From Deltaproteobacteria bacterium (lineage in GTDB: Bacteria > Desulfobacterota > DSM-4660 > Desulfatiglandales > B25-G16), in NCBI GenBank assembly GCA_019310725.1, contig JAFDDT010000049.1:1-56608 (forward strand): 56,608 bases of DNA. Reading direction: 5' to 3'. Under the pieces are notes generated by a model, which had not been told where the DNA came from, made no database searches, and saw only the letters and a program-made list of their open reading frames with translations. Positions 8,737 to 44,127 of the stretch are shown in pieces. Position numbers and translations under genes: made by a program. Every line of letters starts with the position of its first letter. Within the stretch, counting starts at the first letter, position 1.

Positions 8737-8739
8737 CCC

Positions 8740-11240: not shown

Positions 11241-11433
11241 TTTCGGTCTTGGCCATTGAAAGTCATGCGGAGATTGGCAGGCACGTTCGCACACCCGCCT
11301 TCAGGCCATACGCGGAGGCTTGGACCTTGCCGCTTTGCTGTTATCTGGTGAGGGACCGAACCTGAGAAAACCAAGCAATTATTTCCACGTCATCCGGTCC
11401 AGTGCATCTGATTTAGAATAAGTCTATGCCAGC

Positions 11434-12744: not shown

Positions 12745-12764
12745 ACTGAAGAAGTACCGTGGAA

Positions 12765-14252: not shown

Positions 14253-14285
14253 AGAGAACCCTGCAATAAGAAGTTTTCGTTTTTT

Positions 14286-21543: not shown

Positions 21544-22656
21544 CTATCCAAACAGAGCCAGTATCTGCTGCGGTGCCAGGTTCGCCTGGGCCAGCATGGC
21601 AGTACCAGACTGGAGCAGGATCTGGTTCTTGGTAAACGCCGTCATCTCTGCCGCCATATCCACATCCCGGATAACCGACTCCGCAGCCTGGAAGTTTTCA
21701 ACCGAAATCGCCAGGTTACCGGCGGCATACCCAAGGCGGTTCTGGTAGGCACCGATATCGCCTCGAGATTCAGCAACCGTAGAGATAGCAGTCTCTATGT
21801 CATCCAAAATAGCATGGGCCGATGCTGCTGTGGAAATATCATCTGCAGCGAGGCCAAGATCAGTGCTTTGGACACTATCTATGGTTATACCAATGCTGTC
21901 ATAGGCGGCTTCACTGTAGCCAACCTGGAACGAGGCGGTTGTGCCCTCCTGGACGTTGAGGTTAGCACTTGCCAGGGCTGCTCCTAGAGTATCTTTGAGT
22001 CCATTACTTGCCGCTGCTGCTTCAGTCATCGTGAAACTCACCCCGAGTGTGGAGAAATTTACGTTAGCGCTGGTATCCAGGTCAACCGTCTCTGTAACAG
22101 TACCCTTTTGTATCGAGACCACATTCGTGGTCGCGCTGTAGGTTACTGTGTGGGCCCCGGTTGCGGCGTTCAAGACGCTGACATTGTAAATACTATCTAT
22201 ACCACTCCAGGTCGTTGTGGTGTTCCCAGCATTGAACGTACCATCGAGTAGGGCCTTATTTGCGTATTTGGTAGAATCAGAGATTCGGTCAATTTCCAGA
22301 ACCAAGGCGTTGTACTCATTACTCAGCTTGCCAATATCATCGCCTGCGTTCCCCGAGGCAGCCTGAGTGGCAAGCTCCTTCATACGGGTCAGGATTTCCC
22401 CGATCTTGATCATACCACCTTCAGCGGTCTGCAGAAGGGCATTGGCCTCAGAAACGTTTCTCTGTGCCACCTTTAAACTTGCAATCTGAGCCCTAAACCT
22501 CTCAGAAATTGCGAGCCCGGCGGCATCATCTGCCGCAACGTTGATACGATATCCAGAAGAGAGCCTTTCAAGTGACTTCGAAAGCCCCTTATCTGCAACC
22601 ATCAAGTGTCGATGCGCGTTTATCGCAGCGATGTTGTTTTGGATTCTAAGTCCCAT
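21544..22656 (-). CDS. fliC: Flagellin
   Basis: N-terminus MGLRIQNNIAAINAHRHL...LSSGYRINVAADDAAGLAISE and C-terminus TKNQILLQSGTAMLAQANLAPQQILALF are canonical flagellin termini. The Ser/Thr-rich central domain could take O-glycans. RBS AAGGAGGA. Confidence 0.95.
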   Translation of the reverse strand: MGLRIQNNIAAINAHRHLMVADKGLSKSLERLSSGYRINVAADDAAGLAISERFRAQIASLKVAQRNVSEANALLQTAEGGMIKIGEILTRMKELATQAASGNAGDDIGKLSNEYNALVLEIDRISDSTKYANKALLDGTFNAGNTTTTWSGIDSIYNVSVLNAATGAHTVTYSATTNVVSIQKGTVTETVDLDTSANVNFSTLGVSFTMTEAAAASNGLKDTLGAALASANLNVQEGTTASFQVGYSEAAYDSIGITIDSVQSTDLGLAADDISTAASAHAILDDIETAISTVAESRGDIGAYQNRLGYAAGNLAISVENFQAAESVIRDVDMAAEMTAFTKNQILLQSGTAMLAQANLAPQQILALFG

Positions 22657-25173: not shown

Positions 25174-25240
25174 TCGATAGGACCTCGTATGGGTGTAAAT
25201 TCCAATTGAAAAAGTAACGTGAGCAGGGTACTGGCTTTTC

Positions 25241-27202: not shown

Positions 27203-28316
27203 TTACACTGTTCTTGTTGCTACTTCCTCTACCGTTCTGATTACATAATCAATCTCATCCTCTGTTAATCTTGGGTATAAAGGCAGGGAAATAGTGGAAT
27301 TGCCGATACGCTCTGCTACCGGAAAACTACCTTCACCCTTGCCAAACATTTTCCGAAACTTCGTCAGCAAATTGATGCTTCTATAATTAACGGCTACTCC
27401 AACGCCCTTTTGTTGCAATCTTTTCAAGATGTCATCACGTCTTTTTGGATCCACCCATATGGTAAATAGATGGTATCCACTTTTGGCGTTAGCGTATAGC
27501 TTAGGAGAATCCACATCTTTCACAGACGAAAGGGCCTTCAAATACCTTCTGTATACATATTCTCTTCTCTTCCAGTATTGTTCAACCTTTGCAAGCTGAG
27601 GCATGAGAAGCGCAGCCTGGATATCACTCATATTGTATTTCCAGCCCAATTCAAGCAGATCCCAGTGTTTATATTCTTCGGTGTATCGCTCTGCGGCTTC
27701 TTTATTCATTCCGTGAAGTCTAAGAATCCGAATATTCTCGGCGAGTTTCTTTGAGTTTGTGGTTACAGCGCCCCCTTCACCTGAGGTGATGCTCTTGGTG
27801 GCATAGAAACTGAAGCACCACCCTTACTCCATCTCTCTCGCTTTCCAACGCGTGAGCAGCATCTTCGATGACAAAGACTCCGTGTTTGTCTGCTAGCTGC
27901 CTGATTCGCCTCATATCACACATCTGACCATACAGATGCACCGGGAGGATGGCTTTGGTGTTTTCCGTAATCGCATTCTCCACCAGATCCGCATTCAGGT
28001 TCCCGGTATTCTCTTCGACGTCTACCCAGACCGGCTTCGCACCGCAATGTATGATCGCTGTTGACGTCGCAACGAAGGTCATTGGAGTGGTAATGACCTC
28101 GTCTCCAGGACCTATGTTTAATGCCAAAAGGGACAAATGCAATGCGGCGGTGCAGCTCATAAGTCCAACACAGTAGTGCGCACCAACATAATGTGCCAAA
28201 TTGCACTCAAATTCATCGACCACCTCACCGCTGGTCAGAAACACAGAATCGAGAACCCTAATGACTGATTCCTTCTCCTCAGATCCGATATTGTGCTTGT
28301 AAAATTCTATTTTCAT
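27203..28316 (-). pseudogene. DegT/DnrJ/EryC1-type PLP sugar aminotransferase, split by a frameshift
   Basis: Two ORFs (27777-28316 and 27203-27709) are the N and C halves of one aminotransferase. Reading the downstream frame upstream of its Met gives FSFYATKSITSGEGGAVTTNSKKLAENIRILRLHG (PLP-lysine motif). That frame is closed by TAA just before it, so the shift lies near 27810-27830. Confidence 0.75.
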
Positions 28317-28335
28317 GATCCTAAAGTGTAATCAC

Positions 28336-29364
28336 TCAATGCATGACGACAGTTCCGTCTTTCATCTTGATGGGTATCTGCCTCATCCATCTTAGCGGTT
28401 CCCACCACCGCTGATTACTTGCATACCAATCAATTGTTAAATCAAGCCCGCTATCAAAGTCAGTTTCCGGCTCCCAGTTCAGGAATTTCTTCGCCCGTTC
28501 AGTTGAAGCAACGTGTTTTTCAACTTGTCCGGGCCTATCATTGACATAGGTGATTAGATCCAGCGGCTTATTCATCTTATTTAATACTGTCTCCGCTATC
28601 ATCTTGATAGTAATAGCGGTGCCGGTTCCGATATTGACAGCCTTTCCATATAGATCTCGATTTTCACTGTGTAAAACGGCATCCAGCGCCTTGCAATGAT
28701 CCCCAACATATATCCAATCGCGAGAGGCACTGCCGTCACCATGAATTGTGAGGGGCTCATTCAAGATAGCACTCGTTATGAAACGAGGAACCGCTTTCTC
28801 TAGGTGTTGATGTGGACCATAATTATTGAAGGGTCGGATGATCACCGCTGGAATTTCATAGGTCTTCCAGTATGAATAAATGAGGCGGTCGGCCCCTGCT
28901 TTTGCACTTGCATAAGGACTGCAGGGTAGTAATGGATGATTTTCTGTCATCGGTGTTTCGACAGCGCTTCCATATACTTCCGAAGTTGAGACGTGGATGA
29001 GCTTTTTGATTCTTCCGTTATTCTTTAAGATCGCATTGCAAATAGTCTGAGTCCCTAATATATCTGTTTCAAAAAAGACCTTATTGTCAAATATAGATCG
29101 TGCCACATGGGTTTCTGCTGCAAAATGAACCACATAGTCTGCTTGGGCTACCAGGTTATTTACAATCTCAGAATTCCTGACGTCACCATACCAAAACTCA
29201 AACCGATTATCATTTTTGATCAGGAGGTTGAAATTGTCGGGATTTCCTGCGTAGGTTAATGCATCCAAGACCACAAAGTGATAATCTGGATACTTCCTAA
29301 ACATGGAATTAATAAAATGGCTTCCGATAAAGCCAGCTCCACCAGTAACTAATATGGTCTCCAT
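28336..29364 (-). CDS. rfbB: dTDP-glucose 4,6-dehydratase (RmlB-type SDR)
   Basis: ILVTGGAGFIGSHF, HFAAETHVARSI, TSEVYGS and SPYASAKAGAD (YxxxK). ATG 29364 overlaps the upstream stop (TAATG). Confidence 0.8.
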   Translation of the reverse strand: METILVTGGAGFIGSHFINSMFRKYPDYHFVVLDALTYAGNPDNFNLLIKNDNRFEFWYGDVRNSEIVNNLVAQADYVVHFAAETHVARSIFDNKVFFETDILGTQTICNAILKNNGRIKKLIHVSTSEVYGSAVETPMTENHPLLPCSPYASAKAGADRLIYSYWKTYEIPAVIIRPFNNYGPHQHLEKAVPRFITSAILNEPLTIHGDGSASRDWIYVGDHCKALDAVLHSENRDLYGKAVNIGTGTAITIKMIAETVLNKMNKPLDLITYVNDRPGQVEKHVASTERAKKFLNWEPETDFDSGLDLTIDWYASNQRWWEPLRWMRQIPIKMKDGTVVMH

Positions 29365-30059
29365 TATCTTAGCTCCCTTTTCCCTGTTAGATAATCCAGA
29401 GATTCTGGACCGCAATTGAAAAGAAGGTCCACTACTGATAAATGCGGAACGAAGCCTCCGAATAATTGAGGATATTCTGGATGCTTATAGTTGTGATACT
29501 TGACCTTGATGCCCCTTTCCATGAACTGGTCTTCTTCAATGTAATTCCTCCCTGCATCTCCACTCAAATACTCACGTGCGCCCAGTTCGACACAGATATT
29601 CACCAACCGCTCAGTACTATTACCATCTACCTTTAGTGCAGATGAATAGACAATATTGGCCTTAATATTGAGGACATCTTTAAAGCATACGATCAGCTCC
29701 ATATTAAGGTCGATTAGGTATTTGTGGTTCTTCCCAAGTATCTCCTTTATAGAGGGAAAATAGTCCTGGAAATACCTTGCCCTTGCATAAGCGGCACTGA
29801 TGGATTCAGCATGCTTTAAGTTCCATGCTGTGTCGTAGACTATCATTGCTTCACTTATCAGTTGACCTCTCCTGTCCTTTGACAATACCGGAACCGACAA
29901 CCATAAAGGTCCACTTTGGGTCTTGATTCGATTTCTCGATCTCCAATCTCGTTTTGTATATTGAACATCATCATAAATTACGAAAATATCTGCCCAGTCC
30001 ATTTGGTCGAAGAACCCAAGCCAAGGCAGATAACTCGGTTGTAGAATCACACACTTCAT
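29364..30059 (-). CDS. WbqC-family protein
   Basis: MKCVILQPSYLPWLGFFDQMDWADIFVIYDDVQYTKRDWRSRNRI...LWLSVPV matches the WbqC-like family pattern. ATG 30059 has GAGGAA upstream. Confidence 0.7.
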   Translation of the reverse strand: MKCVILQPSYLPWLGFFDQMDWADIFVIYDDVQYTKRDWRSRNRIKTQSGPLWLSVPVLSKDRRGQLISEAMIVYDTAWNLKHAESISAAYARARYFQDYFPSIKEILGKNHKYLIDLNMELIVCFKDVLNIKANIVYSSALKVDGNSTERLVNICVELGAREYLSGDAGRNYIEEDQFMERGIKVKYHNYKHPEYPQLFGGFVPHLSVVDLLFNCGPESLDYLTGKRELR

Positions 30060-30176
30060 ACTCGATTCCTCGATCACAGAGTACCTTTGAGCAGCATCGA
30101 TGGGCGGAGTTACAGCAGTTCATATCCGGCATTCTACATATCGGGCGACTCCTCTTCAAAGATGGGAGTCTAAGAT

Positions 30177-32009
30177 CTACCAGAGATCCCCCATAGCAAT
30201 CTCATCACAGTCTGACTTAATGGTCTTGAAGTAGGCTGGGAGATGCAATGCAGTTCCACCCAGTGACAGAGCATATTGCCTGCAAACCTCTTTTTCACCC
30301 AACGATTCAAAGCCTCGGTCTATATAAAAGGACTCCACTTGCTCATTCTTACTTGTTGCTATATAAAAGCCGAACACCTCCTTACAATTCCTCTTCCGGG
30401 CAACTGACTTACAGTCACTTAAGAGAACATCTTCAATCCCTCTTCCAATAACTCTGCAGCTCAGAAGAAAGGTATCCACAAGGCATTTCGTTTTTTCATA
30501 TCTCAAAATAGCCACACCGACGATGCCGGAATCACCAAACCGATCCTTTAGCCGCAAGAATCGTACATCAGCCTCGCTGGAAGCAGCAAGGTCAGCTATT
30601 TCAGATTCTGAATACCTCTTTGTGGTTAAATTGAACTGGTTGGTTCTTTGCGTTAACTGAGCAATCCTCGGGATGGAAAACGCGTCAGCACTCTTGATGA
30701 ACACTTCCATTTCTAGATACCTGTAATAATCATCGATACTCAAATCCTTTAACTGTGATGCTGTCTTTTTTCTCATTATCTCCGCACGATACATTTCGCT
30801 CCGATTTCGATCCTCATTTGAAAATGTCAAGGAATCAAACAAACCACATGCGTTGAGCGCATGCTTGAATTGGGAAGGATCTGGCGGTAGCAGGATGCAT
30901 TCAACTTCTGGTAAGAATTTTCGCACCATATTGATCTCGACCTCACTGTCATCTATAAACACAAAGCTATCCAAACCTAAATTCAACTCGTGTGCCATCT
31001 CTCTCAAATTCGAAACCTTGTCCCTCCAGTTAATTTTCATTGAGAGAAAACATTCCCTTTTCAGGAGCATATCAGGGTGTTTTTCTAAAACCTCGATGAC
31101 GTCCTGCTCATTATTTTTGCTACAGATCCCCAATAGAACTCCCCTGTGATAGAGGTCTAATATGGCATCTTGAAATTCCCGAAAGGCTGACCCAGGGTAT
31201 GTCCTGCCCAACTTGATATTCTCAACTCCATCTTCGCCAACGATGCCACCCCACAAGGTATTGTCACAGTCCAGCACAAGGCATTTCTTATTTCTGCCCT
31301 TTAATGCGCGAATGAACTTCATATATTCCTTGGCAATAGCCTTGGACGCGCTCACGGTATAGGGTGCCCTTCCGATGTGCCAGTACCGAGAATCTAAGAA
31401 ATGCATATCACCAAGAACGGATTGCAAGAGATCAATATCTACGACATAAACACCTTTGTATTGGTGAATTATGTCAAGTAGCTTGTTGTTGATACGTCGA
31501 AACGTGTTTACCTGTTTGTAGCGTTCTTGGTAGTCAAGCACCCCATAAGCGGGATAAACGGGAACTTCAAAATTATGCACCAGGACAACTGCGTTGCTGT
31601 TTCTTCTGATTGCCATGAGAATAGTATCGAAAGTATCTAGTACTCGCTCCACTTCACTATCAATCTTCTCCTGGGTTAAACTGACGAAGGAGTTCGTTAA
31701 TTCCCCGCAAAGCAGTTCTTTTTTTAGACACACCACGATAATATCGGGTTCATGCTGGAAGAGAGGGCTGTCAGAATTTAGAACCTCCTGCATTATATTG
31801 TCATATTCCCCCATATAAACATCAGCCTTCAAATTATCGTAGTAGCAGAAAAACTTCCAATAGGTGCATATATGATCCACGGTGATGTTTCTAAGAAATC
31901 CTATCCTCAAAGGAATGTGATTCCCATCTGAACCATCGAGGAGGTGAACACGTCTTACAACTTCGTTGAATTTAAGCGTCTCAAGGTCTGCGCCATTCAT
32001 GATATTCAC
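30177..32009 (-). CDS. FkbH-like HAD-IIIC phosphatase/acyl-loading protein with C-terminal GNAT-like region
   Basis: KCLVLDCDNTLWGGIVGEDGVENIKLG is the FkbH / HAD-IIIC DxDxT motif block. 610 aa. The start is GTG 32009 or ATG 32000. Confidence 0.7.
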   Translation of the reverse strand: MNIMNGADLETLKFNEVVRRVHLLDGSDGNHIPLRIGFLRNITVDHICTYWKFFCYYDNLKADVYMGEYDNIMQEVLNSDSPLFQHEPDIIVVCLKKELLCGELTNSFVSLTQEKIDSEVERVLDTFDTILMAIRRNSNAVVLVHNFEVPVYPAYGVLDYQERYKQVNTFRRINNKLLDIIHQYKGVYVVDIDLLQSVLGDMHFLDSRYWHIGRAPYTVSASKAIAKEYMKFIRALKGRNKKCLVLDCDNTLWGGIVGEDGVENIKLGRTYPGSAFREFQDAILDLYHRGVLLGICSKNNEQDVIEVLEKHPDMLLKRECFLSMKINWRDKVSNLREMAHELNLGLDSFVFIDDSEVEINMVRKFLPEVECILLPPDPSQFKHALNACGLFDSLTFSNEDRNRSEMYRAEIMRKKTASQLKDLSIDDYYRYLEMEVFIKSADAFSIPRIAQLTQRTNQFNLTTKRYSESEIADLAASSEADVRFLRLKDRFGDSGIVGVAILRYEKTKCLVDTFLLSCRVIGRGIEDVLLSDCKSVARKRNCKEVFGFYIATSKNEQVESFYIDRGFESLGEKEVCRQYALSLGGTALHLPAYFKTIKSDCDEIAMGDLW

Positions 32010-32015
32010 CGGCGA

Positions 32016-33593
32016 TTATCTTGTTAAATACTCCGTCAACCACTGGGAAGGAATCTCACGATAAATGTCATCATTCCAGTAGTCGTCGTCTATAAAATCT
32101 TCTTGAACTAGACGGGCCCGTCTCAAATCTGCTGATTCAGTCAACCCTCCGAGGACTTTCTCAAGCATGCTCAAGAGAGTCGTCCCATTCGATTCCTTTG
32201 CTGCGAAGAAATGGCCCCTGAGCGGAGAATTAATGATCCTGAACAAGACTGCCGTTAGCTTTGATGCCATCATAAGCTCACTGTGAGACATAGACGATGT
32301 TGAAAAAACGTAATGCGGCGCATCCTCCGAATATACTATCCCATACGAGCTAGATGAGGTTTCCAGGTCGGAACCAGGTAGGATCTGAAGCCTATGGACA
32401 TTCAGGATATGATCTGTGTTCCTCAAATAGGGCAAAATAGATTCAAGCCCTTTGATATACGATTCAAATGTTTCGAACGGCAATCCCAGAATAATATCTA
32501 ACTTAAGCACAATATTGTATCTCTGGACGACCTTCATGAAACGCTCAAATTTTTTCAGACTGACTGGTGCTCGGGCAACAGCCCTGAGTGCTTCTCGGCA
32601 AAAAGACTGCACACCTACACAGTTCACTACCGTATAATCTTTCAGGAGATCTGAGTAGAGTTGTGGCCGGTCAAGAGGGGCGATACCGTTTGAATTGCAT
32701 ATCCTTTCGCGATATTTAAGAGAAGAGGTGAGCTTAATGAACTCCTCATCAACACCATTGTAAACAAATTCCCAGTATATCCGAGGGAGTCTAAGCCCTT
32801 CTCTTCCCTTCAGATCCCTTAGATATTTTACGATATATTTTGCCCTCTCGAGATTGGAAGTGAATACGGCATCGAAAATCCTAAGAGAGAAGACCTGTTT
32901 CTCTAAGATCAGATGGTCTAACTCCTCAATAATCCTCTCAAGAGGATAGTAGGCAATGTTTGGCAAGCCCTTGTGATATACGCAGTAACTGCATCTATTT
33001 TTGCACCCTCTCTGAGTTTCCAGATACGCCTGCTGTCGTTCATACAATCCTTCTTCAATGGCTCCGCTCAGATACACAGATGGAAGTTTGTCAAGATCTA
33101 CAACACCTTTGTTCGCTGTATAATGGAAACCTTTAGAACTCCTATAGGCAATCCCCCGAGGGAAATTGCATCGAAGACCTCTCTTTCTCGCCATTAGGTA
33201 TTTAATATGATTAAGTATTTTTTTCTCTCCCTCCCCGATTACATAGTAGTCACCTACACCCTGCTCAGACAAAAAAGCAGCCCGATTCACAGAAATCTCC
33301 GGTCCACCCAAGATGTGAAGACACTCCACTCTTTCCTTTAATACCTTAATCGTCCCGATAATTTTCCCGATATTCCATATGTAGCAGCTATACCCAACCC
33401 AGTCCGGCCACTTGCACACAATCGCATCACAGATTTCTGATAAACCTGTCTTGGAGCTGAGGTCAAGAACCTCTACAGAAAAAGCTTCCTCACCAAGAAG
33501 GTACTTCTCTAGATACACCTTGAGCACATAGGAGGAAAGAAGGTATCTAGCTAAGGTTTCTTGAGGGTACAAATTGACGAGGAGTAATTTCAT
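32016..33593 (-). CDS. B12-binding-domain radical SAM protein
   Basis: The N-terminal region resembles a cobalamin-binding domain. Radical SAM cluster motif ETQRGCKNRCSYCVY (CxxxCxxC). 525 aa. Confidence 0.7.
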   Translation of the reverse strand: MKLLLVNLYPQETLARYLLSSYVLKVYLEKYLLGEEAFSVEVLDLSSKTGLSEICDAIVCKWPDWVGYSCYIWNIGKIIGTIKVLKERVECLHILGGPEISVNRAAFLSEQGVGDYYVIGEGEKKILNHIKYLMARKRGLRCNFPRGIAYRSSKGFHYTANKGVVDLDKLPSVYLSGAIEEGLYERQQAYLETQRGCKNRCSYCVYHKGLPNIAYYPLERIIEELDHLILEKQVFSLRIFDAVFTSNLERAKYIVKYLRDLKGREGLRLPRIYWEFVYNGVDEEFIKLTSSLKYRERICNSNGIAPLDRPQLYSDLLKDYTVVNCVGVQSFCREALRAVARAPVSLKKFERFMKVVQRYNIVLKLDIILGLPFETFESYIKGLESILPYLRNTDHILNVHRLQILPGSDLETSSSSYGIVYSEDAPHYVFSTSSMSHSELMMASKLTAVLFRIINSPLRGHFFAAKESNGTTLLSMLEKVLGGLTESADLRRARLVQEDFIDDDYWNDDIYREIPSQWLTEYLTR

Positions 33594-33598
33594 CTTGT

Positions 33599-34279
33599 CT
33601 ACCTGGATATCTCCATCATTTTCTCAAAATGTTCACTATCCAACTGGTATAATTCAGTCTGTCTTTCGATATACACCTCTTTCTCTTTTGTGCTCCTTAG
33701 GATGAGCGCTCCAGCGCCTATGATGCATTCTCTGCCAATCGTTACATCATCCCGAATAGTCGCATTCACCCCTATAAAGCAGTAAGGCTCTATTCTAACT
33801 CCACCAGAGACAACAATATGTGAAGAAATCCAACAATGCTCACCAATAACAACATCGTGTCCGAAATGATTTCCACTCCAGATGATGACGTTATTACCAA
33901 TCTTTACAAAAGGCTGAATGACTTGATTTTCAAGAATGAAACAATTATCCCCAACCTTTGTGTCGTCCCACTGGGTGGCCTTCGAACTCACATAAGAAAT
34001 GAGCTTGTATCCCTTTTTTCTCGCCTCTTTGTATTTAGCAGCTCGTACCGTATTGAGCCCTTTATACCCTATGGCAACGAACATCGTGAATTCATCAGGT
34101 GGGTAGGTCGTTGCAATTGTTTCAAATGGCACAACAGGAAGGTTCATTATCTTCCTTCTGTCAATAAATGCTTCATCTGCAGCAAAAGCAACTACCTCAT
34201 AAGGACTGTCTTCTGTTAGATAGAAATGGGCCAGTTGGGCCATTTTTTCCGTGCCAAAAATTACAACCTTCTTTTTCAT
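33599..34279 (-). CDS. NeuD/PglD-family sugar N/O-acyltransferase (left-handed beta-helix)
   Basis: Rossmann-like N-terminus KKVVIFGTEKMAQLAHFYL...YEVVAFAADE, followed by hexapeptide repeats (IGNNVIIWSGNHFGHDVVIGEHCWISSHIVVSGGVRIEPYCFIGVNATI). Confidence 0.75.
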   Translation of the reverse strand: MKKKVVIFGTEKMAQLAHFYLTEDSPYEVVAFAADEAFIDRRKIMNLPVVPFETIATTYPPDEFTMFVAIGYKGLNTVRAAKYKEARKKGYKLISYVSSKATQWDDTKVGDNCFILENQVIQPFVKIGNNVIIWSGNHFGHDVVIGEHCWISSHIVVSGGVRIEPYCFIGVNATIRDDVTIGRECIIGAGALILRSTKEKEVYIERQTELYQLDSEHFEKMMEISR

Positions 34280-34289
34280 GATCTCTTCC

Positions 34290-35039
34290 TTATATCCTCA
34301 ACCCACCGTCAATTTCTAAAACCCTTCCATTAAAAAAATCGCTCTTGAGAATGAACACTATACCATCCGCAATTTCCTTAGGTTTAGCCATTCGTCTGAG
34401 TGGTGTATCTCGAATCCAGTTACTCAGGATAGTCTCACTCATTGATCCTATTGTGGTATCTGTCTTTGTAAAACCAGGGGCAATCCCTGCCACTCGAATA
34501 CCCAGAGTTCCCAATTCTTTAGCCCAGGTGACTGTCAGAGCAACGACCCCTGCCTTAGCCGCAGAATAGGCACTCTGTCCGATGTTTCCTACCGCGGAAA
34601 TGGAGCTAACGTTCACAATGACACCTTTAGTTCTTTGTGAGACCATTCTACGGACCACTTGGGTGGTAACATAAAAGACTGAACTTAAATTTGTGGATAT
34701 GATTTTGTCCCACATCTCAATATCATGGCTCACTATACCTCTCGGACCCAGGGCTACCAGTAATGCACTGTGGACGATCCCAGCATTGTTAACCAACACG
34801 TCAATCCTTCCAAACTCTTTAAAGAAATCATCCACTGCTGTCTCGACTGAGTCCGGCTGACTCACGTCGCAGGCCCTGCAATACAAACTAGAATAACGGC
34901 CTCCCAGCCTCAGGAGGGCCTTCTGGTCAATATCTAAAACACCTACAATGGCCCCCTCATCAACTAGCTGATCTACAAGGACCATACCGATACCGCTTGC
35001 CCCTCCGGTTACGATCACCCTTTTTTCATTGAGATCCAT
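34290..35039 (-). CDS. Short-chain dehydrogenase/reductase, FabG-like
   Basis: VIVTGGASGIGMVL (TGxxxGxG), NNAG and YSAAKAGV (YxxxK). Confidence 0.8.
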   Translation of the reverse strand: MDLNEKRVIVTGGASGIGMVLVDQLVDEGAIVGVLDIDQKALLRLGGRYSSLYCRACDVSQPDSVETAVDDFFKEFGRIDVLVNNAGIVHSALLVALGPRGIVSHDIEMWDKIISTNLSSVFYVTTQVVRRMVSQRTKGVIVNVSSISAVGNIGQSAYSAAKAGVVALTVTWAKELGTLGIRVAGIAPGFTKTDTTIGSMSETILSNWIRDTPLRRMAKPKEIADGIVFILKSDFFNGRVLEIDGGLRI

Positions 35040-35050
35040 AGGTCCACTGT

Positions 35051-35281
35051 CTACGGTTTCTTACTTTGTAGAATTCCTATGATCGCGGAAAACCTAGTCA
35101 TTTCGACGATTTCATCCATGCTCAACATGGGGATATCAAAGTTTTCCTCAATGGCAACCATAAGTTCCATATGTTTCAAAGAGTCCCACGAAGCAATGGT
35201 CTCCATTGACGATTCCTCATTTATTTGGTCAGCACCGATCTCGAGAACATCCGACATGATTCTCTTTAGATTATTCTCCAT
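35051..35281 (-). CDS. Stand-alone acyl carrier protein
   Basis: 76 aa, acidic. The WDSLKHMELMVAIEENFDI segment carries the DSL phosphopantetheine-serine motif. Confidence 0.75.
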   Translation of the reverse strand: MENNLKRIMSDVLEIGADQINEESSMETIASWDSLKHMELMVAIEENFDIPMLSMDEIVEMTRFSAIIGILQSKKP

Positions 35282-35402
35282 ATTTCACCTTCCTCTCCGT
35301 CTTCACTTGAAAATTCTCCGCCAACCTAAAATTCGTAGATGCCTCTACGACCATTGAAATATCGATCTTGACATAGAATACCCATTTTCCATCAAATCCC
35401 AT

Positions 35403-36317
35403 CTATTCCACCAATACCGCATATCCACAACCGGACTTGCCATACCCATTACCGTTGTAAAGCATATAATTACGCGCTTCATGTTTGAAAACAAAGGGAT
35501 AGCAAATCATCTCGCTGTCCCAGCCTTGCGGAGAGACATCGATTCCAACAGTATCGTCCATGCGTTTCCACGATAGGCCATCTTTTGATTCTGCATAGCC
35601 TGCTCGGTAGGTATTCCATCCCCCCCTATGGCTGTACCACATTTTGTATGTACAGCCTTCTTGATAAACGACCGGTCTGGCAATAGCATATTCATCCTGC
35701 CTCAGGTCGATACAATCCAGTCCTTGTGGATTCCAATTCAACCCATCGAGTGACTCAGCGTAACGAATATGGTAATAGTGTTTCGATTTAGGATCGTTTT
35801 GGACTACTTCCCAGCCAGTTCCAGAAACGTACCACATCCGCCATATTCCATTTTCCTTAGTTACCCAGGGCGAAGCCGTCAGATACGGATCGTGCTCAGT
35901 TCGGCCTAAAACTGGAGCCTTTGAATACCTCTCATAGGTCTTCCCACCGTCTTCACTTATCGCAAGGCCAATAAAGAAAGAAAACGGTGTTACCACCTCC
36001 TGTTTCCACCCCGTGTAGTACATGTATTTTTTCGAGTCGGAATCAACTATACACGACGGCATGACTCCACAGTCATCGAAACATCCCAGATCACCAAGAT
36101 CTATGGTAGGTTCCGGTGTTATGTATAAGAGTTTTACGGAATCTTTGAAATCAACAGATGCATATCCTCCCCGTGCTCTATTTGCTCTGTCCCTCCCTGC
36201 AAAGTGGACTTTATATAGGCTATTTTCTACGTTCTCAACAAATGGATTTTGTGCATAAGTGACCATCCACTCGAACGTACCAGGTTGAATAAGCAAGCCC
36301 TTTTTTAGCCATCTCAT
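35403..36317 (-). CDS. Predicted beta-propeller glycosidase-like protein (GH32/43/68-clan-like), function unknown
   Basis: Repeated W/Y-rich blades (WRMWYVSGTGW, YKMWYSHRGGW, YMLYNGNGYG). This is only a fold-level guess. ATG 36317 follows the upstream stop in TAACATG. Confidence 0.35.
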   Translation of the reverse strand: MRWLKKGLLIQPGTFEWMVTYAQNPFVENVENSLYKVHFAGRDRANRARGGYASVDFKDSVKLLYITPEPTIDLGDLGCFDDCGVMPSCIVDSDSKKYMYYTGWKQEVVTPFSFFIGLAISEDGGKTYERYSKAPVLGRTEHDPYLTASPWVTKENGIWRMWYVSGTGWEVVQNDPKSKHYYHIRYAESLDGLNWNPQGLDCIDLRQDEYAIARPVVYQEGCTYKMWYSHRGGWNTYRAGYAESKDGLSWKRMDDTVGIDVSPQGWDSEMICYPFVFKHEARNYMLYNGNGYGKSGCGYAVLVE

Positions 36318-36318
36318 G

Positions 36319-36954
36319 TTACGTGATCTCATATTTCTTAACTAATATTGTAAACTCATAGAGGCCGTAGTCATGAAGCAGAGCTACATTTTTGGAATAA
36401 TTGCGCTTACAGTGATCAAACACAACACACGGGTCCGCATAATACAAATAGTCTTTCATATGTTCTCTATCTGAGTATTGTGTTAGCATGTTAAAGGCAA
36501 AACCCTTTTTACTTAGGTGATTAATTCCTTCAAGTATAGCTAAAACATACTCTTCCCACTCTTCATAGCTTCTGTCTAATTTGATATTAAAAATTCCACT
36601 TGCCACCGTGTAATCTGCCACAGTCAGACACGCTTCATCCGTAAAGAAACAGCACTGTTCCAATTCCCCATATAATTCTCTGGCCGTTTCACACATCTTG
36701 CCTGATATTTCAAATCCTCGATACTGAAACGAGTAATCTCCATCAGTCATATACTTAACCAGTGCTCCATAGCCACAACCGTAATCATTTATGGAAAAAA
36801 CCAGGTTTCTATCACAGATCTTTAGTAGTTGCTCAAATCTCAGCGTTTGTGACTGGGGAGAATTCCAGTCCACCCCCTTAGCTGTAGCGCCATAGGTGAC
36901 AATCTTTTCGTTATAATATTGCCTAACTCCGTCAATGATGCTATTGAACTGCAT
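36319..36954 (-). CDS. Class I SAM-dependent methyltransferase
   Basis: Motif I INDYGCGYGALVKYM. 211 aa. Confidence 0.7.
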   Translation of the reverse strand: MQFNSIIDGVRQYYNEKIVTYGATAKGVDWNSPQSQTLRFEQLLKICDRNLVFSINDYGCGYGALVKYMTDGDYSFQYRGFEISGKMCETARELYGELEQCCFFTDEACLTVADYTVASGIFNIKLDRSYEEWEEYVLAILEGINHLSKKGFAFNMLTQYSDREHMKDYLYYADPCVVFDHCKRNYSKNVALLHDYGLYEFTILVKKYEIT

Positions 36955-37607: not shown

Positions 37608-40600
37608 TCAATGAAGGGAAATTTTTCCATAACATTCAGTCAAATTTTTGATCATATTCTCTTTACCGTAAGCATACAGCCTCTCTCGGTTTTCTCTGGC
37701 AAACCGTTTTTGCAGTGATTTGAGATTCCCAGCTGCATGGAGCAGAGTCTCTCTGACACTTTTCCCATCAATCTTCGTTCGCAACACATTCAGCTTGTGA
37801 TCCAAAATGCCATCAATGTCAGATGTATCCTGAACAATCGTAACCGCTCCTGAATATGCTGCTTGAAGTGTTGTGCCGGAGAATCCCTCATCATGGACCG
37901 CGAGAGAATAGACGATGTTATGTGACTTAATTAGTTCTGCAAATTCTGCCTGCGATAGAGAGTGCGGAATAAAATCGCAGTACTGGGCCACACCCAGCGC
38001 CTTTGCCATTTGAATCATTCTTTCAAAATATTCCCTGCCCTGGTTTGGATTTTGGCCTATTATAAATGTGGCCTTTGTAGCAGGAAATTTGTTGACAAGA
38101 TATGGGATTGCCTTAACGAGAAGATCTTGACAATAGAACTCTCCCATCACTCGCGCAGAGAGAATCTTCGGGGTATCACTAATTTTTCGTATTTGATCAT
38201 AAAGGGAAAGGTCAATTAGAGGACGGAAGAAAACATATTTTTCAGCTGGCAAGTTGCCATAATATGACTGGTATCGTTTGAAAACATTGGGCATCCCGTG
38301 TAAAAAATAGTCCAGAGTTTCGATGCACCGTTTTTCATAATGATTCGCAACTCCATTGGGATACTTCATAGTTTGCGAAGACCATGGTACCAAGACACTG
38401 CGAATACCAAATCTGATTTTTGCCATCCAGACAGGGATACAGCTATACGTTAAGGAGTGTCCGTGGACAATATCAGGCGCTTCTTTTTCGAATGCCGTTT
38501 TCAGAAACTCTTCTAGCCGTCCCTCTAACTTTAGCCGTTGCCAATCGGGGCTCTCATAACCCCTGTAGGGAAAATAATACACAGGAATATGTTTTGGTGT
38601 GATAGCGGTTTCCGGAGGATAGTAACTAATTACACATTGCTCATATCCTCTCTTGTCTAGTTCTTCTATAATGTCAGATACATGGACAGAATGAGCACCG
38701 CCAATATGACATATCTTAGGCTTATCTTTGATCTTAGCCTCGGCCCTGGAAGGATGAGTCTTTTTGCGCCCTGTATCATTTGTTACGTACTTGAACTTTC
38801 CTCCCTTGGTCAAAGGAATATCCTGAACATATTGGAAATTAATGCTGACGTTGTCATCAACTTCTTTTATTTTGCTGTGAATATAATCCTCATCGTTTTT
38901 GGAAAAACCAATTTCTTTTACAATTTTTACCAAAATGGATTTCTCTTCATTTTGAATAAATTGATATGCTCTCATGGGTAAGTGATTAATCATATTGCAT
39001 AATTCTGTTCCATTAATAATAGCATTGGGAGTCGTCAGGTAATCCGTTACCCTTCCCTTAAGATCTCTTATTAGTGGCAAGGTCCGCCCGCAAGCACAAC
39101 GATCATGTGTGACTCTTGCAAGGTCATCAGACTTATAGCGAATCCACGGCATCACCAGATTATAAAGATGGGTACACGTGATGATGCCTTCCTGATTTGA
39201 ATCCACCCTTTGATTCTCTTCACTGAGGAGTTCCAGCAAGAAGATCTCGTGAGAAATATGGAAACCATCATGGTTTTCACACTCCATTGCGTTCGATCCA
39301 CCGTCATTGACGCCATAGGTGTCAAAGACCTCTCCCAAGTGTTTGCTAATGCGTTGTCTTTGTGAATCGAGTAACACTTCACTTGTTAAGAAACTAGCTT
39401 TCCCTTTAATGTTTTCATTTAGTTCCAACTTCTCAAGATAACTGCAGAACAAATCCATCAAATACGGCAAGCCCCTGTAGAACTCAGGATTGTATGTCAG
39501 AATCTCCTGATAAACCCTTAATGCTGTCTCATCCGTGAAGCCGAACATCTCTATTTTCTTGCCGCCCTGAGGGCCCAACCCGCCTCCAGCAATAGTTAAC
39601 AGTCTACTGTTTTCCTTCCACCCGGCCCATCTCCAACCCCTTCTCTGTGTACAGTCAATGGATTCTGCCTGTTCCTTTGAAATAAGATAATTAAAAGGCC
39701 TTCCAGTCGAGCCTCCTGTATTTCCGTGGTAAAAGCCAAATTGATCTGCATTATCCGCGATAAAATCCCTTATCTGCTTTCTCATTACCATCTTGTCAAC
39801 GACCGGTAGTTTCTCAAGATCCTCAAATGCCTGGATGTCTTTAGGCTTAAGGCCTCTGTATCGCATTTCCTTTTTCCAAAATGGGACATGGTAATAGGCC
39901 TGTTTTATAAGATTCTCCAAAAGGAGGCCATGATGTTTCAAAGCTTCCGTTTTATCCCAATATTGTGATTCAAAAAGATCGATATCTTTTATGGACGGGG
40001 CAAAGATTCTATCCTTCTTAATTACATTAAAATGCCTGCCCTCCTCTTCTGTTTTAAACACCTCCCGAGCTGTTTTCCTTGCAATAACCATTTGCCCCAA
40101 TAAGTTATCAGTTGTAGAGGCGAAAAGAGCTGTCTCCTCATGGATTTTTTTCAGTACAGCTCTATCAAAATATTCCTCTATTTTAGCATTCTTACTGATC
40201 CCATCTTTGGAAAGCTCGGCTTTCAACTTCTTGAGGGAGCTAGCTGTGGCACCCGACTTTTCAAGGAAATCTCGACTTGTCTTTCTTGTTTCATAGCTCT
40301 TATGAAGGCGAATTTCAAAACCAGCCTTATGGATGGCTAATTCTAAAGACTTTTTCGAAAAATAGTAAAGATGATTGGGTACTTCCAGGAACCTTGTCCC
40401 AATTGAATCATCGAGGAACCGTTGCTCTATATGGTAAATGAGTGCGCCACAATTTGGAACGCTCAAAAAAACCACGCCGTTGTTCTTTAGAATACGCCGT
40501 ACCTCAACCAGGAACCGTATTGGATCGGGCAAATGCTCCAGAAGTTGGTTGAAAATAACGATATCAAATGTTTCTTCAGGGAAGTTGAAGTCGAAAATAG

Positions 40601-42581
40601 TTCCGCATTCTAGATCCAAACCATATTTCTGCCTGCCATACTCGATAAAATACCTGTTCAGATCGATTCCTTTGCATTCATAGCCGATATCCGCAAATTT
40701 TTTGAGAAACAGGCCATCAAAACAGCCGACCTCCAGAACCTTTTCTCCGCCCCTCAATTCGGTGTTTTCAGAAATGGTGGCGAAATACGTTTCATAGGTT
40801 TGTTTGTTCTGTTTGTGGTTTGCCTCTATGGCTAGGTTCAGATCGTTATTCCATCTCTTTTTCTTCTCTTGCTCTGAATACCACTGTTTTGAGAATTCCT
40901 CGGTGGGAACTGGATGAACAAAGCGCAGCTCACAGTCGCGACAGAAGATCACGTGGAAATCGTATATCTTCTTGATGCGCTCCGTGTGCATGCTTCCACA
41001 TATACGACAAGGCACACACCTTGAGCCCATATCCAAAGATTCTCTTACTCCTATCCCCTCAATTCGAGACCCTCGATTCATTACTTGCCTATAGAACTGT
41101 TCAAGCCGTGCAATTTCCTTTTCGTAGGTGAATACCTGTCTTGAGAAGTCTGTTATCTCAGCGATCTCCTTTAATCGAGACACGTTTTTGGTTATATCCT
41201 CTTTATTCTGAAATGTAATTCCCACAGGATTCGTGCTGAAGTATTCGATATAGCTTCTCAGAGGGGATGCCAACACCGGGAGGCCAGCTGCAAGGTATTC
41301 GAATAATTTGTTGGCGATGGTTGAATCGAGGAAGCGTTTGTTTCCCTTCTCCAGGTTAAAGGGTATAATGCCAAAATCGAATTGGCTCATCGCCTCGATT
41401 ATCTGTTTAGGCGACAAGGGGTTGCTGTAATGGATATTTGGAAACTCCGAGAAATACCGAGCGATCTCTGTGTCGTAAAATGTAGGATAAATGTGTATAT
41501 GGTTTCCCAGCTTGGCGAGTTGGACAAATAAGGAGAAGAAATCCCGATGCCCGTTCCCTCCAATGCCTCCTTCGTAGACAATGTGAACTTTACCATCCCG
41601 GGCAGAAAGTTTTGGTAAACTGTTTTTAGGTAAATCGGATTCCGATACGTAATTGTAAAGAACCAGAGAGGGCCCATTAACGCCATACAGCTTCTGTGCC
41701 TCTTCCATTTGATACGGCGTCGTGTAGACCCTGCCGGTGGCTCCGCGATTTGCCACACCCTCGAAATAAGACAAATTCAGATCCCCGTTTGCCCGCAATG
41801 AGATTAAATCATGTGTGTCGTGGATTACCGGTGCCTCTCCAGCCAGAGCGGCAACAGTCAATATATCTGGCTCGTTATGACAATGAACGATATCGTAATG
41901 CCTTGATATGTCCCAAAGCTGGCGAAAATTCGATATATGAATATTCTCGTCATACACATCATCACTCAACCCTTTATACATTTGACTCAAACGCGCCTTG
42001 GTATAGGCTAGGGAAATCCTATGGCCTCTGGATCGCAAGGCAGTGGCCATTTTGTAATTGCGAATGCACGGTGCTTCCTGAACAAAAAGGATGTTGAGGG
42101 GCTTTTCGCTGATCGCAATCCTTGGAGCAGAACCCTTTTTCTCAAGTGCTCTTAAGGAATCTGCAACAATTTGTTGATCAGGATTCAGTTCAAGGGATTT
42201 TTTCAAGGTCACTCGAGCTTTTTCAGTCTCGGCCATCTCCAAATAGATCGTGCCAAGCTGATTAAAGAGATTGGGATCCGTATTCTCGATCTCGATGCAC
42301 TTTTCTAAATGAATACAAGCCTCTTTCCAGCGCTTGGTGTTCTGGTATAAGTCTGCCAAATTAAGTAGCGCATCGAGGTACTCTTCCTTGGCGGCGATAG
42401 CTTTTAAGAATAGGTCTTCAGCTCCTTTAACGTTACCTTTGGCATGCTGGATTACCCCAAGATTATTGAGGGTTTCAGCATTCATTGGATCATTTTCCAA
42501 CAGATCCAAAAAGCACTTTTCCGCCTCTTCAATTTTTCCTTCAGCAAATAATGCTTCGCCCTGTTTTATGGGGTTTTCCAT
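37608..42581 (-). CDS. 1657-aa multidomain enzyme: TPR, GT4-like glycosyltransferase, Zn-ribbon + SAM methyltransferase, CapK/phenylacetate-CoA-ligase-like adenylating domain, second GT4-like glycosyltransferase
   Basis: TPR repeats in the first ~160 aa. GT-B-like region (FEYLAAGLPVLAS). Zn-ribbon CVPCRICGS...CRDCELRF plus methyltransferase motif VLEVGCFDGLF. NTGGSTGRPFNY (adenylate-forming motif). C-terminal GT4-like region (VHGHSLTYSCIPVW...). ATG 42581 has GGAGG 9 nt upstream. Confidence 0.75.
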   Translation of the reverse strand: MENPIKQGEALFAEGKIEEAEKCFLDLLENDPMNAETLNNLGVIQHAKGNVKGAEDLFLKAIAAKEEYLDALLNLADLYQNTKRWKEACIHLEKCIEIENTDPNLFNQLGTIYLEMAETEKARVTLKKSLELNPDQQIVADSLRALEKKGSAPRIAISEKPLNILFVQEAPCIRNYKMATALRSRGHRISLAYTKARLSQMYKGLSDDVYDENIHISNFRQLWDISRHYDIVHCHNEPDILTVAALAGEAPVIHDTHDLISLRANGDLNLSYFEGVANRGATGRVYTTPYQMEEAQKLYGVNGPSLVLYNYVSESDLPKNSLPKLSARDGKVHIVYEGGIGGNGHRDFFSLFVQLAKLGNHIHIYPTFYDTEIARYFSEFPNIHYSNPLSPKQIIEAMSQFDFGIIPFNLEKGNKRFLDSTIANKLFEYLAAGLPVLASPLRSYIEYFSTNPVGITFQNKEDITKNVSRLKEIAEITDFSRQVFTYEKEIARLEQFYRQVMNRGSRIEGIGVRESLDMGSRCVPCRICGSMHTERIKKIYDFHVIFCRDCELRFVHPVPTEEFSKQWYSEQEKKKRWNNDLNLAIEANHKQNKQTYETYFATISENTELRGGEKVLEVGCFDGLFLKKFADIGYECKGIDLNRYFIEYGRQKYGLDLECGTIFDFNFPEETFDIVIFNQLLEHLPDPIRFLVEVRRILKNNGVVFLSVPNCGALIYHIEQRFLDDSIGTRFLEVPNHLYYFSKKSLELAIHKAGFEIRLHKSYETRKTSRDFLEKSGATASSLKKLKAELSKDGISKNAKIEEYFDRAVLKKIHEETALFASTTDNLLGQMVIARKTAREVFKTEEEGRHFNVIKKDRIFAPSIKDIDLFESQYWDKTEALKHHGLLLENLIKQAYYHVPFWKKEMRYRGLKPKDIQAFEDLEKLPVVDKMVMRKQIRDFIADNADQFGFYHGNTGGSTGRPFNYLISKEQAESIDCTQRRGWRWAGWKENSRLLTIAGGGLGPQGGKKIEMFGFTDETALRVYQEILTYNPEFYRGLPYLMDLFCSYLEKLELNENIKGKASFLTSEVLLDSQRQRISKHLGEVFDTYGVNDGGSNAMECENHDGFHISHEIFLLELLSEENQRVDSNQEGIITCTHLYNLVMPWIRYKSDDLARVTHDRCACGRTLPLIRDLKGRVTDYLTTPNAIINGTELCNMINHLPMRAYQFIQNEEKSILVKIVKEIGFSKNDEDYIHSKIKEVDDNVSINFQYVQDIPLTKGGKFKYVTNDTGRKKTHPSRAEAKIKDKPKICHIGGAHSVHVSDIIEELDKRGYEQCVISYYPPETAITPKHIPVYYFPYRGYESPDWQRLKLEGRLEEFLKTAFEKEAPDIVHGHSLTYSCIPVWMAKIRFGIRSVLVPWSSQTMKYPNGVANHYEKRCIETLDYFLHGMPNVFKRYQSYYGNLPAEKYVFFRPLIDLSLYDQIRKISDTPKILSARVMGEFYCQDLLVKAIPYLVNKFPATKATFIIGQNPNQGREYFERMIQMAKALGVAQYCDFIPHSLSQAEFAELIKSHNIVYSLAVHDEGFSGTTLQAAYSGAVTIVQDTSDIDGILDHKLNVLRTKIDGKSVRETLLHAAGNLKSLQKRFARENRERLYAYGKENMIKNLTECYGKISLH

Positions 42582-42608
42582 GAAAAGCAACCTCCGCTCA
42601 CTTTTTTA

Positions 42609-42637
42609 TTGACAAAACAACCCAAAAGCAATACACT
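42609..42637 (+). promoter_or_regulatory. Sigma70-type promoter candidate for the RHH-PIN pair (TTGACA-N17-TACACT)
   Basis: TTGACA at 42609-42614, a 17-nt spacer, and TACACT at 42632-42637, 30 nt upstream of ATG 42668. Confidence 0.4.
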
Positions 42638-42667
42638 TTTCAAAATTTTGTAATACAAAGGTGCGAT

Positions 42668-42974: not shown

Positions 42975-42978
42975 CTAG

Positions 42979-43446
42979 ATGAAGTTGTTTATTGATACCG
43001 ACATTTTTGTTCGAGACCTGATATACAGAGACGACAAGAACATCAAAGAGAATGATTTGTTTCTAAATTCGGTCAAGGCAAAAAAGATAATTGGATTCAC
43101 ATCTATTTACAATCTGTTGGAATTATGTGGAATATTGTCATTTAATCTTAACTCGGAATCGCTATTGCATCTTTATTGGGGTTTCAAGAAAAGGTATCGG
43201 CTAAAACAAATTCTTTTTGGCAAATCTTCTGATGAAAATCCTATCATTGATATCAATATAGTATTTGGACAACTTCTCAAGAAGATGTCCTTTGGAGATG
43301 CGCTGATTGCTGCTTGTGTTCAATATCATTCGGATTTGATAGAAGGTTTTGTTTCGTGGAACATGAAACATTTTGAAAACAAATTAAATATGGATGTGTA
43401 TACTCCGCTGACATTGCTCAGGAAGCTTGACGCTGATTTATTTTAA
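42979..43446 (+). CDS. PIN-domain protein (VapC-like toxin)
   Basis: MKLFIDTDIFVRD start and a later GDALIAACV segment. It begins 4 nt after the RHH reading frame ends. Confidence 0.6.
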   Translation: MKLFIDTDIFVRDLIYRDDKNIKENDLFLNSVKAKKIIGFTSIYNLLELCGILSFNLNSESLLHLYWGFKKRYRLKQILFGKSSDENPIIDINIVFGQLLKKMSFGDALIAACVQYHSDLIEGFVSWNMKHFENKLNMDVYTPLTLLRKLDADLF

Positions 43447-43788
43447 GCCCTCCCTCTGGAAAAAGCTATAAACCTCGTCGCTAACAACCTCGGCCAACCT
43501 GTTTGCCAGAGAATCGATCCTGCTTGGATTCAAATGAGTCCTACTCGCTTGATCCCTATTGTTGAGTTCTTTCTTGATCTCCGCCAGGGGCATTCCTTTT
43601 CCTCTCAACTCTTTAATCCCTTTAATGATGGAAACGTGCTCAGAGGTGTAGCGTCTCTGTCCACCCTGGGTTCTTAAAGGAAGCAGAATGCCTTCAAACT
43701 CTCTTTCCCAAAAACGCAACGTCGGCTTTGGTATTCTAAGCTCCAGGCTGACCTGCTGGATACTCAATGCTTTTTCCTGTGGATTCAT
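43438..43788 (-). CDS. Small MerR-family transcriptional regulator
   Basis: LSIQQVSLELRIPKPTLRFWEREFEGILLPLRTQGGQRRYTSEHVSIIKGIKELR is a MerR-type wHTH. 116 aa. Confidence 0.75.
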   Translation of the reverse strand: MNPQEKALSIQQVSLELRIPKPTLRFWEREFEGILLPLRTQGGQRRYTSEHVSIIKGIKELRGKGMPLAEIKKELNNRDQASRTHLNPSRIDSLANRLAEVVSDEVYSFFQREGLK

Positions 43789-44100: not shown

Positions 44101-44127
44101 CTATCGGAAAAATTTGCTCTAACTTTA
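44101..44127 (-). promoter_or_regulatory. Sigma28-type promoter candidate: TAAAGTTA-N11-TCCGATAG
   Basis: The minus strand reads TAAAGTTAgagcaaattttTCCGATAG. The -10 box is identical to those of the fliD and fliC promoters. It points toward the MerR-type gene about 310 nt downstream. Confidence 0.45.

Follow-up and report, generated by a model that had tools for sequence, protein, structure and literature searches.

What would a single polypeptide do that carries tetratricopeptide repeats (TPR), two glycosyltransferases, a methyltransferase and an adenylate-forming enzyme, and on which substrate would it act? The question is raised by a minus-strand gene of a Deltaproteobacteria bacterium of the Desulfatiglandales, on contig JAFDDT010000049.1 (assembly GCA_019310725.1); the whole stretch of 56,608 nucleotides that was analysed is called here the window. 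An earlier note on this DNA had described one uninterrupted open reading frame with five modules in that chain, and had likened it to FlmG of Caulobacter, in which a TPR domain is fused to a glycosyltransferase acting on flagellin. We find that the five-module reading frame is a genuine fusion kept by selection, and that its catalytic motifs are for the most part intact. Its product is probably a soluble enzyme with several functions, part of a flagellin glycosylation island: guided by the TPR, it would both build and decorate an O-glycan of flagellin. The underlying logic is already known, both for TPR joined to a GT-B glycosyltransferase on flagellin and for large multi-domain flagellin transferases.

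Five modules on one maintained chain

The protein (called below the big gene product) and its modules are placed as follows:

37608..42581, minus strand: whole open reading frame including the stop codon (37608-37610), 1657 aa
42132..42581, minus strand: TPR module, residues 1-150, about 4.5 repeats (Pfam TPR families, E 1e-13 to 1e-16)
41073..42101, minus strand: GT1, a GT-B glycosyltransferase, residues 161-503 (Pfam Glyco_transf_4 and Glyco_trans_1_2)
40932..41009, minus strand: Cys4 zinc-ribbon-like motif, residues 525-550 (C525, C528, C547 and C550, invariant in 10 homologues)
40272..40814, minus strand: class I S-adenosylmethionine (SAM) methyltransferase, residues ~590-770 (Methyltransf_23 E 3e-21, Methyltransf_11 E 2e-18)
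38766..40037, minus strand: PaaK/CapK-type adenylate-forming module, residues 849-1272 (NCBIfam PaaK-type matches, E 1e-20 to 1e-26)
37611..38720, minus strand: C-terminal GT4-like GT-B glycosyltransferase, residues 1288-1657 (Glyco_trans_4_4 and Glycos_transf_1)

The single open frame runs through 1657 codons without an internal stop. Its ATG at 42581 has GGAGG 9 nt upstream; an alternative TTG at 42590 leaves zero spacing to this ribosome-binding site, which favours the ATG as start. Among 5.8 billion proteins searched, about ten from separate assemblies, of 1535-1708 aa and 40-74% identity, proved to be colinear homologues over the full length, with the modules in the same order. Against the closest of them (P0003, locus L060), the ratio of nonsynonymous to synonymous substitution rates (dN/dS) is 0.13 for the TPR, 0.14 for GT1, 0.23 for the zinc-ribbon methyltransferase and 0.12 for the PaaK-like module, the four modules for which dS is unsaturated; each of these parts is thus kept by selection. 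The two AlphaFold models, of residues 1-515 and 860-1657, reach a mean confidence (pLDDT) of 91 and 85; the disordered linkers that they show, at 150-160, 505-515 and 1271-1284, are short.

The single frame and the five modules in their proposed order are therefore upheld, the latter by hidden Markov model profiles, the two models and conserved motifs; the two motifs quoted at the time, VLEVGCFDGLF and NTGGSTGRPFNY, are found in the protein, and the profile check suggested for the methyltransferase and adenylating modules came out in favour of both (E values listed above). The architecture had been presented as unrecognised. This stands insofar as we found no description of it in the literature searched; it does not stand as uniqueness, since the full-length homologues exist and belong to a larger modular family.

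The TPR module forms nine helices in the AlphaFold2 model (residues 4-150, pLDDT >90) and is followed by GT1, which bears the precomputed Pfam label PF26337 Gtf3_C; the model covering both has a pLDDT of 91. By profile, the closest solved relatives of GT1 are Gtf3/GtfC (PDB 3qkw, 3rhz, 4w6q; E 3e-8), and the alignment covers profile positions 223-317 only, i.e. the C-terminal, nucleotide-sugar half, the Gtf3-type N-terminal acceptor half being unmatched in these alignments. Gtf3/GtfC extend a sugar already attached to protein, in the O-glycan of streptococcal serine-rich-repeat adhesins. Unlike the protein described here, they lack a TPR and any fused tailoring module, and they act on another protein.

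The methyltransferase exceeds the cut-offs of Methyltransf_23, Methyltransf_11 and Methyltransf_25, and its motif I (ExGxGxG; E617, G619, G623) as well as the acidic D640 after strand 2 are invariant in the 10 homologues. The adenylating module (precomputed Pfam label PF27533 CapK_C) has a two-lobed ANL fold with P-loop, ribose-binding Asp, GRxxD hinge and C-terminal catalytic Lys; the T955-G960 P-loop, D1153, G1176/R1177/D1180 and the C-terminal K1262 are invariant in the same homologues. It aligns with the PaaK-type ligase 4r1l (E 1e-19) over the P-loop, IRY..D, CxCGR and GRxxD hinge, and its Foldseek matches are PaaK-family ligases (TMt 0.6-0.69). It thus shares fold and core motifs with the AMP-forming ligases of this family (PaaK1, BT_0428, 2-hydroxyisobutyryl-CoA ligase, NatL2, AjiA1, ClxA). 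Unlike them it sits inside a glycosyltransferase fusion, and it scores far under every NCBIfam equivalog cut-off, including those of PaaK (71.5 vs 646.3 bits for TIGR02155, 77.9 vs 700 for NF041878). Our literature search found no paper characterising the biochemistry of CapK-type enzymes in glycan pathways, and none to back the statement of the earlier note that such enzymes attach carboxylate or amino-acid substituents in capsule pathways.

The C-terminal module resembles the retaining GT4 enzymes MshA and BshA (Foldseek TMt 0.72-0.75). Direct comparison detected no similarity between it and GT1, which rules out an internal duplication as the origin of the two glycosyltransferases.

The setting between flgM and fliC

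The genes around the fusion, and the promoter that faces it, are the following:

21544..22656, minus strand: flagellin, 370 aa, presumed acceptor, the sole clear flagellin gene in the 3.9-Mb assembly
23227..27187, minus strand: two tandem GT2-TPR glycosyltransferase genes adjoining fliC
27203..36954, minus strand: downstream glycan genes, small methyltransferase-like gene through DegT aminotransferase
27203-28316, minus strand: DegT/PseC-like aminotransferase, in two reading frames split by a frameshift near 27800-27815
29364-30077, minus strand: WbqC-family protein (PF08889, E 7e-81)
30177-35281, minus strand: FkbH, B12-radical SAM C-methyltransferase-like protein, VioB-type acyltransferase, FabG-like reductase and 76-aa acyl carrier protein (ACP)
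35403-36332, minus strand: 309-aa protein with weak GH43/GH130 (beta-propeller phosphorylase-like) matches
43438..43788, minus strand: small MerR-family gene (Pfam MerR_1)
44101..44127, minus strand: sigma-28-like promoter, TAAAG-N14-TCCGATAG, facing merR and the big gene

On the minus strand the order is merR, the big gene, the sugar genes, the two GT2-TPR genes, fliC, an AbiEii cassette, fliD, fliS and flaG, with flgM upstream on the plus strand. The big gene is thus 15 kb from fliC, inside a sugar-biosynthesis island bounded by flgM and fliC, and both the flagellar setting and the analogy with FlmG, TPR then GT-B, hold good. A sigma-28-type motif (TAAAG or TCAAG, N14-15, TCCGATAG) precedes fliC, fliD, flaG, the flgM operon and merR. 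Between merR and the big gene the minus strand showed no terminator. The merR gene stands directly upstream of the big gene or its counterpart in L001, L002, L027, L060 and G039; the two overlap by 4 bp in L060 and are separated by 856 bp (42582-43437) in the window. This gap is filled by an opposite-strand reading frame (42979-43446, plus strand; 155 aa, starting MKLFIDTDIF), PIN-like by eye and with zero Pfam or NCBIfam matches, which may be an inserted toxin-antitoxin cassette.

From the big gene onwards, the glycan genes encode a small methyltransferase-like protein, the GH130-like protein, the ACP, a FabG-like short-chain dehydrogenase/reductase, a NeuD/PglB/VioB-type acyltransferase, the B12-radical SAM protein, FkbH, WbqC, a dTDP-glucose-4,6-dehydratase-like protein and the DegT aminotransferase. 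Taken together, those at 30177-35281 resemble a branch that depends on the ACP and supplies the amino sugar with an unusual N-acyl group. The local toolkit is of the dTDP-glucose-dehydratase/aminotransferase type: neither a NeuB/PseI-type synthase nor a CMP-sugar synthetase occurs among the window reading frames scanned, and MAF_flag10 is absent from the 25 Pfam matches listed and from the per-module scans of the protein. A pseudaminic or legionaminic acid system of the FlmG or Maf kind is thereby ruled out.

WbqC is a very consistent neighbour of the homologues of the big gene (L001, L005, L006, L007, L061, L062); a literature search returned nothing useful on its function. The GH130-like protein, which also adjoins homologues in L003, L005 and L062, could be a phosphorylase-type, sugar-transferring partner. 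Between the big gene and the next one lies an element resembling a miniature inverted-repeat transposable element (MITE; 37073-37446), with 32-nt inverted arms, 94% complementary and 310 nt apart. The flagellar region also holds toxin-antitoxin-type cassettes, AbiEii between fliC and fliD (20743-21396) and a HepT/nucleotidyltransferase pair near merR (44550-45436). Besides, FliD is unusually long (16786-19881, minus strand; 1031 aa, with Flagellin_IN motifs), and a dense cluster of receiver, HD-GYP and HDOD genes with a CheD-HDOD fusion stands beside the late flagellar genes (2220-14957).

Relatives and the exchange of modules

The big gene is absent from 40 out of 40 relatives of the same genus, family or order. 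In a closed genome of the same genus (G038:C1:4040000-4099999; L064-L066), flaG (84%), fliS (69%), fliD (79%) and flagellin (51% identity) are present, with no island genes within ~45 kb beyond flagellin. A conserved core gene of the lineage is ruled out by these absences; flagellin, much more diverged here than FliD and FlaG, appears to vary together with its glycosylation genes. A second congener (G039:C161; L052, L057, L058) has FlgM (83%) and MerR (64%), followed, in the position of the big gene, by a 553-aa protein that matches the TPR module over its first 158 residues (71-75% identity) and consists of a GT2 domain for the rest; the contig stops just past this gene. This is a natural swap between targeting and catalytic domain, in which the TPR would serve as a portable targeting part.

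Further away, L006 and L007 repeat the order of the window: big gene, WbqC, dehydratase, DegT, GT2-TPR, flagellin and FliD. The neighbours common to the full-length homologues are WbqC, DegT, the dehydratase, a formyl- or hexapeptide-type N-acyltransferase, the GH130-like protein and a giant multi-GT2 protein.

The modules have not travelled together. P0003 is close to the big gene product in the TPR (84% identity), GT1 (90%), the zinc-ribbon methyltransferase (90%) and the PaaK-like module (80%), and only 36% identical in the last glycosyltransferase; dS against P0003 is, in module order, 0.62, 0.38, 0.23, 0.89 and 3.7. P0005 and P0007 show 68% in the last glycosyltransferase and only 31-33% in the PaaK-like module. 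By these figures the protein is a mosaic of modules with separate histories, in which the five-slot architecture was kept while single slots were exchanged. The modules act like interchangeable cassettes, through which lineages would be able to vary their flagellar glycan.

Conservation is strongest in GT1 (60-72% identity from Desulfobacterota to Planctomycetota, Ignavibacteria and Cloacimonadota). Its profile collects 438 cluster representatives at E <= 1e-30, from stand-alone forms of 345 aa through a common form of ~465 aa to fusions of up to 2224 aa; the sole named member that we found is called just "glycosyltransferase", and no description of the family appeared in the literature searched. 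In the wider match list the TPR-GT1 core is joined to a methyltransferase only, to a sulfotransferase (PF00685/PF13469) or an AsnB-like amidotransferase (PF00733), both in the slot of the methyltransferase, to a GH88-like domain (PF07470), or to CapK-like and glycosyltransferase modules without methyltransferase.

The closest stand-alone relatives of the adenylating module (556 aa, 64-65% identity) carry a TPR-like N-terminus of their own of ~130 aa, which hints that the adenylating enzyme too is directed at a protein. Such a stand-alone, TPR-bearing CapK-like gene lies 2-3 bp upstream of a TPR-GT1 gene in two loci (L067, 10001-14531; L068, 10001-13155), so that the fusion of the window joins genes that are separate but neighbouring elsewhere. 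These two clusters also encode a sulfotransferase, a phosphoenolpyruvate mutase, a sulfatase-like protein and heptose-pathway genes, and their content suggests other decorated glycans built on the same TPR-GT1 core.

Substrate and order of the reactions

How would such a protein work? One guide is FlmG of Caulobacter crescentus and Brevundimonas, where flagellin is bound by the TPR while donor specificity depends on the GT-B domain (PMC7591256; bioRxiv 10.1101/2022.03.25.485807); in an engineered FlmG chimera the TPR retains flagellin while the swapped GT-B alters the sugar (bioRxiv 10.1101/2022.03.25.485807), and the TPR-GT2 gene of the congener is a natural counterpart of this construct. The likeness lies in the domain order, an N-terminal TPR then GT-B, and in the flagellar genes nearby. 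The differences are that FlmG has two domains in 596 aa whereas three further catalytic modules are present here, that the TPR spans 150 aa here against ~310 aa in FlmG, and that FlmG transfers pseudaminic or legionaminic acid while no nonulosonic-acid genes stand near the big gene.

That flagellin is the substrate is argued from the position between flgM and fliC, the shared sigma-28-like promoters and the synteny of L006 and L007, together with the portable TPR found at the flagellar locus of the congener, which mirrors the FlmG chimera, the flagellin genes close to ~17 of the ~45 loci with a GT1 relative, and the fold of TPR and GT1, whose best whole-model matches are TPR+GT-B protein O-glycosyltransferases. 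That the modules work together is argued from the stand-alone, TPR-bearing CapK-like gene that adjoins TPR-GT1 genes and from the sulfotransferase or AsnB-like domain that takes the methyltransferase slot in other members of the family. On this basis we propose that the N-terminal TPR would hold the protein to be glycosylated, most likely flagellin, in the manner of the FlmG TPR. The first sugar would be attached by the neighbouring GT2-TPR enzymes or by GT1 itself; GT1, a Gtf3-like GT-B enzyme and the conserved core of the family, would add or extend a sugar on the held substrate, and the C-terminal GT4-like module would add a second one. O-methylation of the glycan would fall to the methyltransferase. 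The CapK/PaaK-type module would use ATP to activate a carboxylate, which it would then couple, through an amide or ester bond, to the glycan or its amino sugar. Probably the donor is an N-acylated 4-amino-4,6-dideoxyhexose that the dehydratase, aminotransferase and acyltransferase encoded nearby supply. As a general requirement, loading of an ACP by the CapK-like module was considered and rejected: L001, L061 and L062 have no ACP nearby.

Tailoring may take place on the protein-bound glycan or on the nucleotide sugar. The toolkit of the island resembles the viosamine system of Pseudomonas syringae and P. aeruginosa PAK (vioA, vioB, vioR, vioS, vioM, acp, vioT/orfN), in which an ACP/reductase branch supplies the N-acyl group of a 4-amino-4,6-dideoxyhexose that also becomes O-methylated and that a large, 1173-aa enzyme transfers (PMC3927599). 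The window holds counterparts of VioA, VioB, VioR and ACP as well as a methyltransferase module; on the other hand, the viosamine functions are in separate genes and no CapK-like enzyme, FkbH or B12-radical SAM protein is described there. P. syringae flagellin carries a methylated, N-acylated viosamine made with vioA/B/R/M/T and acp genes, and its acylation precedes transfer by VioT, taking place while the sugar is still bound to the nucleotide (PMC3927599). The methyltransferase and CapK-like modules might likewise modify the nucleotide sugar before transfer, as VioM, VioB and VioR do on dTDP-viosamine, the fusion then only co-localising the enzymes. Such tailoring of the donor, compatible with a flagellin glycan builder, is a possibility we take seriously while thinking it somewhat improbable. 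Stand-alone zinc-ribbon methyltransferases and PaaK-like proteins are common in relatives, and the nearby ACP, FkbH and VioB-type acyltransferase suggest acylation at the donor level. The TPR-like N-terminus of the stand-alone CapK-like homologue, which suggests targeting to a protein, speaks in the other direction, as does the replacement of the methyltransferase by a sulfotransferase or AsnB-like domain beside the TPR-GT1 core in related fusions; neither point is decisive.

The opposite extension of the flagellin reading is an assembly line working on the protein itself: the four catalytic modules would one after another work on TPR-held flagellin, including an ATP-driven carboxylate ligation, or amidation of a sugar acid, by the CapK/PaaK-type module on the protein-bound glycan, while cassettes swapped between lineages would diversify the flagellar surface and GT1 would represent a new, widespread, protein-directed GT-B family. 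We advance this full scheme tentatively, as plausible yet on balance somewhat improbable. To our knowledge, carboxylate ligation or amidation directly on a protein-bound glycan is undescribed for the CapK/PaaK enzyme class.

Several observations weigh against a TPR-guided flagellin enzyme, or against parts of it. Two of the ten or so homologues (P0011 and P0016) miss the TPR, and the full-length homologue loci L003, L005, L061, L062 and L063 show no flagellin gene on the stretches examined. Distances to flagellin were taken from tblastn and from Flagellin_N searches in 33 host genomes. Of ~45 loci with a GT1 relative, ~17 have a flagellin gene on their own contig no more than ~35 kb away, and many of the others sit on short contigs; in four loci the nearest flagellin gene is over 100 kb off, and three genomes with a GT1 relative of 32-40% identity (two Acidobacteriota, one Actinomycetota) are flagellin-free. 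The GT1 family is thus enriched at flagellin loci, yet not confined to them. In the window, the opposite-strand reading frame between merR and the big gene weakens the argument of a read-through promoter. The catalytic-lysine stretch of DegT, SFYATKSITSGEGGAV, falls in a different frame from the rest. DegT is intact in the homologue loci (375-397 aa); the frameshift may mean either a decaying pathway or a sequencing error. The GT4-like module has E1565-x7-Q1573 instead of the canonical EX7E, and these columns read G...E in P0003 and P0004. Finally, the best whole-model Foldseek matches of TPR and GT1, in a list dominated by TPR+GT-B proteins, are OGT and SPINDLY of family GT41 and bacterial OGT homologues (E 1e-15 to 5e-19), where TPR also lead into a GT-B domain; however the TM-score is ~0.4, the root mean square deviation ~20 A and the identity 10-15%, and the protein has no Glyco_transf_41 (PF13844) match in whole or per-module Pfam scans or among the precomputed labels. 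The match is thus one of shared parts, not of shared geometry.

Could the substrate then be something else, another glycoprotein, a polysaccharide of the capsule or lipopolysaccharide type or a small molecule, the flagellar position resulting merely from the insertion of a mobile accessory island? The TPR-less versions and the GT1 relatives of flagellin-free genomes or of loci far from flagellin indeed show that the use of the catalytic core extends beyond flagellin; the L067/L068 clusters and one in Butyrivibrio resemble general glycan clusters; and the island, missing in 40 relatives, carries the MITE-like element and toxin-antitoxin cassettes. Nevertheless we judge another substrate unlikely for the big gene product, given its place between flgM and fliC, the matching gene order of L006 and L007, the TPR module at the same flagellar position in the congener, the enrichment of GT1 near flagellin genes, and the absence of Wzx, Wzy, an ABC exporter or an initiating phosphotransferase among the window reading frames scanned. 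A frame created by faulty assembly or sequencing, or a pseudogene in decay that joins genes really separate, would fit an assembly in 343 contigs and the frameshifted DegT nearby, but is extremely improbable in view of the same colinear protein in about ten independent assemblies and of the purifying selection on each of the four modules with unsaturated dS, to which the stop-free frame and the confident models with their short linkers are added.

Flagellin glycans influence filament assembly, recognition by phages and by the immune system, and surface chemistry, and their builders outside the Maf, FlmG and GT2 systems are poorly known. The big gene, and the GT1 family of roughly 440 clusters behind it, offer a compact system, with TPR acceptor targeting, two glycosyl transfers and two tailoring chemistries on one chain; their natural module swaps map where specificity lies, and they provide a testable function for CapK-type adenylating enzymes. 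Should tailoring indeed take place on the protein-bound glycan, the enzyme would represent a new type of post-glycosylation enzymology and offer glyco-engineering a useful scaffold.

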